From: an uncultured Verrucomicrobiae bacterium
Lineage (GTDB): Bacteria; Verrucomicrobiota; Verrucomicrobiia; Chthoniobacterales; UBA10450
NCBI GenBank assembly: GCA_963756875.1
Contig: CAVWPA010000003.1
Location: 704,001 to 768,000 of the forward strand
DNA length: 64,000 nucleotides
Direction: 5' to 3'
A program made the position numbers. Position 1 is the stretch's first letter. Each line of letters starts with the position of its first letter. Shown here piece by piece: positions 21,001-24,000 of the stretch.

Positions 21001-24000
21001 TTGCGCGTTTGCGGGAGGACGAACCGCTGCAAACCATGGCCTACACCCTCTTCGGTTTGCTGTACGTTCTTTGGCTTTTCAATTTCCTCACAAAAATTGT
21101 TTACCTCACGCCGCGATCGAGCACCGGCGCGGTAACAGGCCAGTTTTATGTCTTGTACCTGATCGCGGTCACAAAATTCAGCGACATGGGCGCCTATTTG
21201 ACCGGGAGCGTGATCGGACGGCACAAGATGACTCCGCACATCAGTGCAAAAAAAACCTGGGAAGGATTTTTCGGGGCGCTCGTTTTTGCGCTGCTCTGCA
21301 GCCTGGCTCTGTTCAAATTGATGCCTGGGCATTTGTCAGCGCTGACCTGGACGCACGCGACGGTTCTCGGTTTGCTGCTTGGATTCGCCGCGGTGATCGG
21401 CGACTTGGCGGAGTCGATTGTAAAACGAAGCACGGGCGTAAAAGATTCCGGGAATCTGCTGCCTGGAATCGGCGGAGCGCTCGACCTGGTGGACAGTCTG
21501 CTGTTTACTGCGCCGTTGTTGTTCTTTTATCTCCGCTTGGTGGTCCGGGTTCCATAAAGAGATGCGCTCTATAGCGGGAAACTTTGGGGAGCGCACGCGC
21601 CCCGCGTGTAGTCTCCGGCGCCCTCGACGGAGACATTTTTCCGGGGTGAGCCGCAAGGGCTTTTCGGCGAGGGCGCCGAAAAGAGCACGCGAGGGCGCGT
21701 GCGCTCCCCGGAAGCTCCGCGGCGAAAACTGTACATGAAACGCAAACGTGTTGTTGTTCTTGGCGCGACCGGGTCGATCGGGGAAAGCGCGCTAAAGGTT
21801 GCGCGCGACATTCCGGAACGGATGGAAATTGTCGGTCTGGCGGCGAACAACAACGCCGAAAAGCTGGCCAAGGCTGCAAACAAGGTGCGACCGCAAGCGG
21901 TTTGCCTTGGGAACGTAACGAAGATCGAGGCGTTGCGGGCGGCGCTTGAGTACGAGCCGCAGATCTTCGCCGGTGAAGAGGGACTGCGCGAGATCGCGTG
22001 CCTGACGAATGCGGACATGGTGCTGGTCGCAATTGTAGGCACGGGCGGATTGCGTCCCACGCTGGCTGCGATTGAAGCAGGCAAGGATCTCGCGGTGGCG
22101 AGCAAGGAGATTTTGGTGATGGCGGGCGAGATTGTGATGCGGGAAGCGCGCGAAAACGGAGTGCGTGTGTTGCCGGTGGACTCGGAGCACAATGCGATTT
22201 TTCAATGTCTGGAAGGCAAACGCCGAACGCCCAACGCCGAACGTCGAACGTCGAATGCAGAGAACGCGAGTCCGGTTCTGCCTTCGGCGTTGGATGTTGG
22301 ACGTTGGGCGTTGGACGTTTCTGATGTGAGAAGGATCATTCTCACCGCTTCGGGTGGTCCATTTCGCGAAACACCGCGAAAAGACTTTGATGCGATTACG
22401 GTGGAACAGGCCCTGAAGCATCCCACCTGGAACATGGGGCCGAAAATCACGATCGATTCGGCGACGCTTTTCAATAAAGGCCTCGAAATGATCGAAGCCC
22501 GGTGGCTTTTCGGGGTCGAAATGAAACGGGTGGAAGTGGTGATCCATCCGCAAAGCATCGTTCATTCGATGGTCGAATTTGTGGATGGCTCCACGCTGGC
22601 GCAGCTGAGTTACTCCAACATGTGTTTTCCAATTCAATATGCGGTCACCTGGCCGGAACGCGTGCCGAACAGTCTGCCGCCACTGGATTTTTCGAAATTG
22701 TCGAAGCTGGAATTTTTCACGCCCCGCTTTGAGGATTTTCCGGCGCTCAGCCTGGCGCGAAAGGCGGGCGAAACCGGAGGCACGCTGCCGGCGGTCATGA
22801 ATGCCGCGAACGAAGTCGCGGCCGCGGCGTTTTTGGAGCGACGGCTCCGTTTCCCGCAAATCTGGGAAACGGTCGAAAAGGTGATGGCCACGCACGCCAA
22901 CGTTGCGCAGCCGAATCTCGATGCCATATTGCGGGCCGATCAATGGGCGCGCGAGGAAGCGCTGAGATGCGTTAAATCGTTGAAACGGTAACTCGTTCAA
23001 GCGGCCAGCCCCGGCGGTCGGCCACTGTTTACTCATCGCTAATCACCAGTCATTCATGAGCATTTTGTTCCACGGCGCGCGTTTCCTCTTTATCCTGCTC
23101 GAAGTTCTGGTTCTCTTTAATCTGCTCATCGTGGTGCATGAGCTCGGCCATTTTCTGGCGGCCCGCTGGCGCGGGCTCTATGTCGAAAAGTTCGCGATCT
23201 GGTTTGGCAAGCCGCTTTGGAAAAAAACGATCAATGGCGTCCAATACTCGTTAGGGACGCTGCCTTTTGGCGGGTTCGTTGCCGTGCCGCAGCTGGCGCC
23301 GATGGACATTATCGAAGGCAAAGCAGACGTCGATCGCGCGAAATTGCCGCCAATTTCAGTGCTGGACAAGATCATCGTGGCGTTTGCCGGGCCGCTGTTC
23401 AGTTTCGGCCTGGCCGTGGTGTTCGCGGTCGTCATTTCAGTGGTGGGTCGTCCGGTGAGTGAATCGGAGTCCACCACCACCATCGGATACGTCATGCCGG
23501 ATTCGCCGGCGTCGCGCGCCGGGTTAGAAGCCGGCGACAGGATTCTATCCGTTGACGGACACCAGGTTTCCCGTTTTGGCGGGATGGGCGACGACAGCAT
23601 TCAGTGGCAGATTGTGCGCAGCGAAAAGGAAACAATCCCAATCGCGGTCGCGCGCAAGGTGGACGACACGACGAAGAAATTGACTGTTGAGGCGAAGCCG
23701 ATTGTCCCGCCGACCAAGCCGTGGATGCGCAAGGCATTGCGGCAGATTGAAATTGTTCCGGCCGAAACACCTTTGGTGGCAAAAGTGCAGCCGGATAGCC
23801 CGGCTGCGAAGGCGGGTCTGAAGCCGAACGACGTGATTACCGCGATCAACGGCCAGCCCCTCTACCATATTCTTGGCCTTGCCGATTTTATTCGCAAATA
23901 CCAGGGCCAGCCGCTGACGCTTACGGTGGAACGAGGCGGGGAGCCGGTTCGGCTTCCGTTCGATCCCGGTTATCCCAAAGTCGCGTCGGTGTTCAAGGAC

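Follow-up and report, generated by a model that had tools for sequence, protein, structure and literature searches.

In-Frame Palindromes and Heptamer Repeats in Bacteria

Palindromes that are read in frame within conserved enzymes are, going by the accessible parts of the reports, already established by two groups of elements, the RPEs of Rickettsia and the REPs of Opitutus terrae. The RPEs (Ogata et al. 2000) are palindromic hairpins of about 100-150 nt that occur both between genes and in frame in conserved enzymes (PMC2229807, PMC10969869), and an enzyme test on guanylate kinase with such an insert showed that activity was kept (PMC2229807). The REPs of the GTAG and CGTC kinds and their dimers (Di Nocera et al. 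2013) form in-frame inserts of 20-30 residues, commonest in O. terrae (PMC3733652). The accessible text of this study gives the same site for recB of two Xanthomonas species only and different sites otherwise, and covers neither heptamer arrays nor whole RAYT genes in frame (PMC3733652). The intragenic REPs listed for O. terrae may include some of the genes treated below.

Precedents for heptamer repeats are nifJ and the cyanobacterial STRR, the latter being simple-sequence repeats with a period of 7 nt. Inverted pairs of heptamers are described from Xanthomonas and Nostoc (PMC4692102), and in the P6b stem of Nostoc trnL heptamer classes were replaced repeatedly at one stem (PMC4476775). The intragenic heptamers of Beggiatoaceae lie, in the portion of that report at hand, at protein ends or in hypothetical ORFs (PMC4679880). 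The IVS of Coxiella 23S rRNA encodes a protein of the four-helix-bundle family considered here and carries tandem heptamers before the start codon, where RNase III cuts (PMC4990558). A literature search largely without subscription journals returned no paper on heptamer-armed four-helix-bundle elements translated in enzymes, and none in which unrelated repeat families refill a single loop.

The genome studied here (G000) is that of a soil bacterium of the Verrucomicrobiota, assembled to 2.69 Mb in three contigs and 88% complete; the window is its 64,000-nucleotide stretch C3:704001-768000. A genus-level genome search returned this genome alone, so that an exact empty site from a close strain was not at hand. 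Named database records with 72-78% Dxr identity belonged to Verrucomicrobiota or Chthoniobacterales. Relatives' genomes in the comparison are numbered likewise (G004, G009, G012 etc.). The loops were surveyed in 30 family genomes, queried with the sequence beside the inserts, the inserts themselves being left out; 21 of the 202 surveyed loci had no anchor. The Dxr set differs, as it comprises the best 30 loci, ranked with the insert included, minus the unpublished G002 and G007, which are listed as empty Dxr alleles and otherwise stand outside all counts. The species tree from DNA has a weak backbone.

The Hairpin in dxr

The first-pass annotation described a heptamer hairpin translated in frame in Dxr, and this was confirmed (Table 1). 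The hairpin occupies 103 nt (22218-22320) within the dxr frame. The interval bounded by the anchors DSEH.A and LTASGG is 183 nt long in this gene and 87 nt long in most relatives; the extra 96 nt, or 32 residues, lie in the loop after the DSEH helix. The RNA fold has an energy of -65.4 kcal/mol (z = -6.6), equalled by 0 of 200 shuffles, and the stem contains 40 Watson-Crick pairs. At its start, the central part (22258..22281) agrees with the inner end of other family members, of which the genome holds 13 with two arms, two of them in gene cores; the copies have short inverted ends in common. Inspection by eye showed no target-site duplication at the junctions of Dxr and RimO or in 25 listed flanks, no empty allele of a close strain entering the comparison. 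A single tblastn match in the assembly indicates that dxr is a single-copy gene.

Table 1. Positions of repeat-derived features and their host genes in the window
Feature	Position	Strand	Remark
Single AACTCTC-type arm, in frame in uvrA	376..400	-	
Second AACGYYS hairpin	5660..5736	.	left arm forms the last codons of ORF 4873-5697
REPIN-like hairpin, intergenic, immediately upstream of dxr	21586..21709	.	family that flanks RAYT genes in G000
dxr (1-deoxy-D-xylulose 5-phosphate reductoisomerase), host gene, 418 aa	21735..22991	+	NCBIfam TIGR00243 above cut-off
Hairpin left arm, five AACGYYS-type heptamers	22218..22257	+	polar Arg/Thr/Pro/Asn peptide
Hairpin inner stem and loop, non-repeat	22258..22281	+	from RNA fold and family comparison
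Hairpin right arm, five inverted heptamers	22282..22320	+	
ispG, second host gene of the operon	24761..26627	+	two frames in the assembly, 24761-25768 and 25632-26627
Heptamer hairpin, AATCCGC type, IspG inter-domain linker	25630..25705	+	one 8-nt unit; +1 frame change here
REP-like palindrome, in frame, second part of ispG	26078..26139	+	loop filled in nine relatives too

In a structure model based on a 137-sequence alignment, the mean pLDDT of Dxr is 93.6 and that of residues 161-190 about 53; this model replaced an earlier one from 27 close sequences, which reached 61.6. Foldseek aligned the model to solved DXR structures with TM values of 0.87-0.89, and the residues of the DSE and NKGLE motifs are invariant. 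The insert is predicted to form a disordered surface loop on an otherwise normal fold.

The Dxr insert is RPE-like in its way of working, a comparison made by description. It belongs to a dispersed hairpin family of about 100-150 nt with copies between and within genes, is in frame, stop-free and absent from homologues, and by prediction sits in a surface loop with the fold kept. Unlike the RPEs, however, the elements have arms made of tandem heptamers from many families, often occur as single arms, and include a form that carries an ORF; unrelated elements have also filled one and the same loop repeatedly in different genera. As in other heptamer simple-sequence repeats, the period is 7 nt, inverted pairs occur, and most copies are intergenic while some are intragenic. 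The position in the middle of essential enzymes differs from that in Beggiatoaceae as far as the latter are described (PMC4679880).

The Four-Helix-Bundle Element

Three four-helix-bundle genes of the TIGR02436 family are present in G000, one between inverted heptamer arrays and two between inverted hexamer arrays. In the relatives, the TIGR02436 profile gave 123 matches in 20 of 22 genomes, and 90 of these were examined. Heptamer arrays stood on both sides of 24 of the 30 best and 33 of the 60 further genes (57/90), compared with 0 of 339 control windows, so that the kinship of the hairpins with ORF-carrying heptamer elements, as first proposed, is borne out; hexamer arms were found at three of the 90. 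Nine of the 90 had arms of the Dxr type, with order and ends unchanged, the left arm of these nine being translated as the protein N-terminus. Dxr-type arms were found at none of the three TIGR02436 genes of G000, an 88%-complete assembly. Since Dxr-family arms bracket TIGR02436 genes, and since the Coxiella IVS encodes the same protein family, the view that the Dxr insert represents an ORF-less copy of a dispersed four-helix-bundle element with heptamer arms holds at the level of sequence comparison. The translated in-frame hairpins are in this way tied to a named parent element.

As in IVS-type elements of the S23p/four-helix-bundle kind, the ORF-carrying copies of relatives have a TIGR02436 ORF between inverted heptamer arms, while the Dxr copy consists of the arms alone and sits in a coding frame rather than in 23S rRNA. 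The Coxiella IVS likewise has its four-helix-bundle ORF within a stem, and its heptamer unit is near-identical to that of the arms at C1:687993 in the part of the report available (PMC4990558). By contrast, the elements described here are dispersed over the chromosome, and their ORF-less forms are part of mRNA reading frames and show no sign of being excised. RNase III is encoded in G000.

Six Y1/RAYT genes of G000 have REP-type palindromes at their flanks and no heptamer arms. Two other class assignments were rejected. The Dxr element is not a REP or REPIN by membership, as it has tandem heptamer arms, no GTAG or CGTC tag, and RAYT genes are without heptamer flanks. Neither is it a classical MITE: terminal inverted repeats are present, but the ORF found between such arms, in a survey directed at TIGR02436 genes, is of that family and no transposase.

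Heptamer Arrays Across the Genome

Clusters with a period of 7 nt number 224 genome-wide, against 11-35 for periods 4, 5, 8, 10, 11 and 13, and the 461 period-7 arrays compare with 64 and 54 in codon-block shuffles. Hairpins of heptamer and REP-like families number 234, against 4 in a shuffle. At least ten heptamer unit families coexist within this one genome. A strict scan with 12 unit families detected 282 arrays, and 25 lie in the cores of 18 of the 1657 well-scored genes; each of three codon shuffles gave 0 genes. A looser scan brings in PurL, the UbiD-type decarboxylase, HpnH and others as hosts.

The host gene names given previously were confirmed by NCBIfam, which named 17 of the 22 submitted ORFs, some with scores below the curated cut-off. 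The named hosts are Dxr, IspG, RimO, PurL, a menaquinone decarboxylase of the UbiD family, ThrRS, UvrC, Tgt, MetH, UvrA, ThiC, HpnH, UvrB, AcnA, dihydroorotase, an IcmF/MeaB-like protein and an exosortase-like protein. The original figure of more than 20 enzymes with hairpins is roughly right if arrays in genes are counted; two-armed hairpins occur in only about eight host genes, and the remaining hosts have single arms. The uvrA gene, which passes beyond the start of the window, contains about seven repeat-derived inserts. As with the intragenic REPs, the host is verrucomicrobial, uvrA is hit more than once (a double insert in that study), and repair and tRNA enzymes are preferred, so far as the accessible text goes (PMC3733652).

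Frame, Strand and Peptide

Seven loops were compared in about 30 related genomes, and an insert was counted if it was at least 24 nt longer than the short form. Among anchored loci, such inserts were found in 10 of 28 for Dxr, 6 of 26 for IspG, 10 of 25 for RimO, 15 of 25 for PurL, 19 of 28 for UvrC, 18 of 24 for Tgt and 20 of 24 for ThrRS. In total, 93 of the 98 inserts keep the frame and contain no stop, whereas one third at most is expected. The proportion is 66 of 66 in a class of low-error genomes, which was defined by the author of the analysis with the broken cases already known.

The strand of the arrays gives a second line of evidence. Unpaired arrays in the gene cores of G000 lie 15:0 on the strand that encodes a polar peptide, while the ratio between co-directional genes is 21:11; lone arms in the inserts of relatives lie 42:2 on the polar-peptide strand. 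The reverse strands encode hydrophobic or stop-bearing peptides. None of the 94 arrays of the commonest heptamer family lies in a core; the reverse arm of this family is the most hydrophobic one, and its open frames are fewer. Overall, the density of arrays is about 20-fold lower in coding cores (25 per 1.72 Mb, as opposed to 240 per 0.77 Mb), and this depletion together with the strand bias provides independent support for selection on the peptide. Both dxr and ispG are single-copy genes, and no HMG-CoA reductase was found in the 88%-complete assembly; the two enzymes are therefore probably needed. Given 93 of 98 inserts in frame and stop-free and the 42:2 ratio of lone arms, it is most likely that the inserts are translated and filtered at the protein level. 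The earlier suggestion of translation, which relied on open frames, is thus backed by statistics of frame and strand.

The frame is nevertheless broken in ten anchored intervals, namely five at the seven loops, the IspG linker of G000 itself, and four at the UbiD and ThiC loops. The linker is in one frame in all 25 anchored relatives of IspG, and in G035 a related hairpin occupies this position in frame. The five loop breaks and that in ispG come from assemblies of at most ten contigs, which show frame changes in conserved sequence too. At the UbiD and ThiC loops, the four breaks fall among 63 anchored intervals, and one is in G021, a genome classed as low-error. Breaks are commoner in the inserts than in conserved parts; at the error rate of the latter, about one would be expected in 3.5 kb of insert by a rough estimate. 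The two breaks inspected by eye (IspG of G000 and RimO of G017) are single 8-nt units without gain or loss of a unit, which fits sequencing error in repeats. The ten breaks are probably assembly errors.

Loops That Are Filled Repeatedly

Over the whole protein, insert regions of at least 8 residues number one each in Dxr, RimO, Tgt and ThrRS, two adjacent ones in UvrC, three in PurL and four in IspG. A set of nine neighbour genes taken without selection, with 1944 conserved columns and ten or more genomes for each gene, had two flagged regions, neither of them repeat-like; the gene names are presumed from motifs, and neighbour clusters that were antisense shadows of target genes had been left out. 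In 80 further Dxr loci, all five insertions of at least 6 residues fall at the hairpin loop. This loop is naturally variable, being longer in the solved Vibrio DXR and taking 8 of the 39 insertions in 150 distant proteins. The loop at residues 70-79 takes 15 of these 39 and yet has no long insert in the relatives.

The fillings are diverse. The Dxr loop contains two heptamer families and three REP-type palindromes, and the loops of PurL, Tgt and UvrC contain several heptamer families as well as GTAG-type and CGTC-type dimers (labels after PMC3733652). REPs of the GTAG/CGTC kind make up half of the inserts at the loops studied. Whole RAYT genes stand in frame in PurL of G025, ThrRS of G024 and MetH of G000; ThrRS of G036 contains one that is broken. 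The idea of insertion hot spots therefore stands in so far as the same loops are reused; these are not special to heptamer hairpins, since REP/REPIN dimers and whole RAYT genes use them too.

It had also been stated that relatives have no insert or a different one at these loops, which did not hold, as the same family is often found at the same loop of Dxr, RimO, IspG, UbiD and Tgt. At Dxr this applies to G017, G035, G012 and G016, at RimO to G012, G017, G034 and G009, and at IspG and UbiD G035 has the family of G000. In Tgt, one composite of two families is found in G000 and six relatives, and the IspG and ThiC linkers contain repeat-derived peptide in most relatives. Nested or composite inserts occur in Tgt of G017 and G024, IspG of G012 and MetH of G000. 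Recurrence of one family at one loop means that some sites were inherited and remodelled rather than newly hit. In UvrC of G000, G004, G020 and G029, two arms enclose a native conserved segment; the arms therefore need not come as one unit.

Origin of the Inserts

Taken together, we consider it probable that the inserts are tolerated, translated selfish repeats, the old ones among them having been remodelled. ORF-less copies, single arms and unrelated REP/REPIN elements would have been scattered into these genomes at a high rate, and nearly all copies within genes would have been purged. The survivors would be those that are in frame and stop-free, encode a polar peptide and lie at a surface loop or domain linker, where translation would turn them into a disordered loop of an otherwise intact enzyme, as the observed frame and strand bias and the predicted fold suggest. 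One or a few loops per protein would thereby gather inserts. At Dxr, several separate insertions of at least five sequence types are envisaged, while in Tgt, ThiC and IspG an old insert was apparently inherited and then extended, nested into or replaced, as the composites suggest, because an existing floppy loop offers a larger neutral target. Our best guess for the mover is single-stranded hairpin copying without target duplication, which may depend on RAYT for the REPs and, for the heptamer arms, on a pathway linked to the four-helix-bundle element; conversion among copies might keep the arrays fresh. Tolerance at the hit loops is necessary. However, tolerance alone may fall short at Dxr, where the 70-79 loop is more indel-prone yet without long inserts.

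This last point leads to the alternative that the hot spots are targeted at the level of DNA or RNA, a site feature or a resident hairpin attracting hairpins of any family, with protein tolerance as a second filter. Besides the use of one out of at least two indel-prone loops in Dxr, the absence of repeat-like inserts from the 1944 conserved columns of the nine neighbour genes, the nested and composite inserts, the uneven distribution of families over sites and the swap of a whole region between heptamer classes in the Nostoc P6b stem, as far as that report is accessible (PMC4476775), would fit. However, flank identity is not raised among carriers, i.e., there is no homing-like sign of co-conversion, tolerance is to be expected at the hit sites, which are linkers or loops, and the solved Vibrio DXR is also longer at the Dxr loop; targeting is therefore regarded as unlikely. 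A more far-reaching version, in which loops of core enzymes are cassettes exchanged at fixed sites with the frame kept, by hairpin-directed copying and possibly with the four-helix-bundle protein or RAYT acting in trans, is slightly more doubtful still, and the same reserve applies to its scope, whereby heptamer arms, REPINs, whole transposase domains and unrelated helical segments of 70-90 residues would all be swapped. If it were true, cassette loops would be a standing generator of protein insertion domains, and the 7-nt repeat period of bacteria a trace of one mobility system. The opposite extreme, a single ancient insertion per site with vertical inheritance, losses in some lineages and no repeated insertion, has little probability. 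It may apply to Tgt, ThiC and IspG, given the composite common to seven genomes and the repeat-derived peptide at the IspG and ThiC sites in nearly all relatives, but not to Dxr. There, the four hairpins do have common junction residues and the allele of G009 resembles a deletion scar, but 18 of the 28 alleles are empty, 16 of these agreeing in length and motif across both main clades. A clade of all ten Dxr carriers was rejected (AU p = 5e-6), that of the four hairpin carriers weakly so (p = 0.03, fast constrained search), and the well-supported sister pairs G016/G027, G028/G035 and G009/G012 are unlike at Dxr. Identity at third positions in the flanks is about 50% while pairing in the stems remains good, and the Dxr copy shows equal similarity to orthologous copies and to copies at other loci.

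The remaining explanations concern the transcript and the assembly. Hairpins might be kept for an action in the mRNA, as RNase III sites, as ribosome pauses at domain borders or as on/off switches through 7-nt slippage. Long stems, the presence of an RNase III gene, the cleavage of the Coxiella IVS at its first heptamer repeat in the text available (PMC4990558) and the enrichment of frame breaks in inserts would be consistent with this. However, single arms, which cannot pair, predominate over paired ones (42 vs 13), sister genomes vary freely in presence, family and length, unit variants of the two arms mirror each other no more than chance (12/54, p = 0.43), and the two breaks inspected are 8-nt units; such an action is improbable to about the degree of a single ancient insertion. 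Excision from the mRNA, by splicing or by cutting and re-joining, in an intron-like version of the 23S rRNA IVS, is suggested by the kinship with IVS-type elements and by the few out-of-frame copies in essential genes, ispG included. It seems extremely unlikely in view of the 93 of 98 inserts in frame and stop-free, a strand bias that tracks peptide polarity, and single arms that offer no stem to remove; excision of the rRNA IVS is, moreover, described as fragmentation in the accessible portion (PMC4990558). The notion of an assembly artefact or of chance repeats could draw on frameshifts elsewhere in the assembly (PurL). It is already refuted for the inserts, the single-base breaks being left aside, by the shuffle controls and by independent assemblies that carry homologous inserts at matching codon positions. 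A separate candidate, strict templating of one arm on the other or strict selection for pairing, found no support in the same count of mirrored units.

Use of the Inserts and Consequences for Annotation

The roughly 100 inserts at seven loops amount to a natural insertion scan, from which the positions and peptide strands that core enzymes accept can be read. With them, both the movement of bacterial heptamer repeats and the reason for recurrent sites, tolerance or targeting, become accessible to tests. For annotation, it should be kept in mind that low-complexity loops in these proteins stem from DNA repeats, and that frame breaks in them need read-level checks. PurL of G000, for instance, has a frameshift of its own, located downstream of its hairpin.

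Inserts in Conserved Enzymes

The hot loops, which are repeatedly filled by in-frame repeat inserts, can also house whole genes. Complete RAYT genes with their flanking palindromes lie in frame within MetH, PurL and ThrRS, where they measure about 220-265 residues and occupy the loops that elsewhere take the small inserts (heptamer arrays and REP/REPIN dimers). Judged by eye, the HUH-type motif of these embedded copies is apparently intact; the copy in the ThrRS of G036 is frame-broken. In nine relatives, the ThrRS hot loop holds helical-looking inserts of 70-92 residues that are without repeat-like character and mostly without kinship to one another.

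Single genes may carry several inserts. About seven in-frame inserts, derived from at least four repeat families, were found in UvrA of the genome under study. The frame of ispG shifts within its heptamer hairpin, a site where the 25 anchored relatives all keep the frame, and a second, REP-like insert is also present. In purL, a frameshift lies about 100 codons downstream of the gene's hairpin, which shows that indels in this assembly are not confined to repeats.

UvrC has a pair of inverted arms with about 60-70 nt of native, conserved sequence between them. The arms vary in unit family from genome to genome, and in G029 the two belong to differing families.

Coordinates of the features (C1-C3, contigs of the genome under study, G000; other G numbers, related genomes; L numbers, individual loci)
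Feature	Genome	Position	Locus
RAYT in MetH	G000	C2:23183-27799	L038
RAYT in PurL	G025		L140
RAYT in ThrRS	G024		L156
RAYT in ThrRS	G036		L172
Long ThrRS inserts	Relatives		L148, L149, L151-L153, L155, L159, L163, L169
UvrA	G000	C3:700925-705355 (window start to 1355, minus strand)	
ispG	G000	window 24761-26627	
ispG hairpin	G000	window 25630-25705	
ispG REP-like insert	G000	window 26078-26139	
purL	G000	C3:1592800-1595200	L033
UvrC bracketed segment	G000	C3:161488-161630	L036
UvrC bracketed segment			L184, L198, L199
Hexamer-flanked four-helix-bundle genes	G000	C1:485617; C3:103925	
Hexamer-flanked four-helix-bundle genes			L273, L277, L279
AACG-armed elements	Several		L271, L290, L309, L320
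Exosortase-like cluster	G000	C1:682800-690800	L047
Intergenic mosaic	G000	C3:4500-6200	L048
Intergenic mosaic	G000	C3:626200-628000	L051
940-residue ORF	G000	window 26852-29674	

Four-Helix-Bundle Elements and Repeat-Dense Regions

A subfamily of the four-helix-bundle genes (TIGR02436) is flanked by inverted hexamer arrays, not heptamers, and hexamer hairpins without an ORF occur too. Four-helix-bundle elements with arms of the AACG type share one locus across several genomes, where the right arm appears to extend into the following gene's signal-peptide region.

A cluster of exosortase-like and glycosyltransferase-like genes is rich in several heptamer families, with a 12-unit array preceding its four-helix-bundle gene. 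Two intergenic mosaics combine several heptamer families with longer direct repeats, and no clear ORF was seen between their arms. The window also contains an ORF of 940 residues that is rich in Cys and Trp in its middle and has a very long tail rich in Gly, Lys and Gln.
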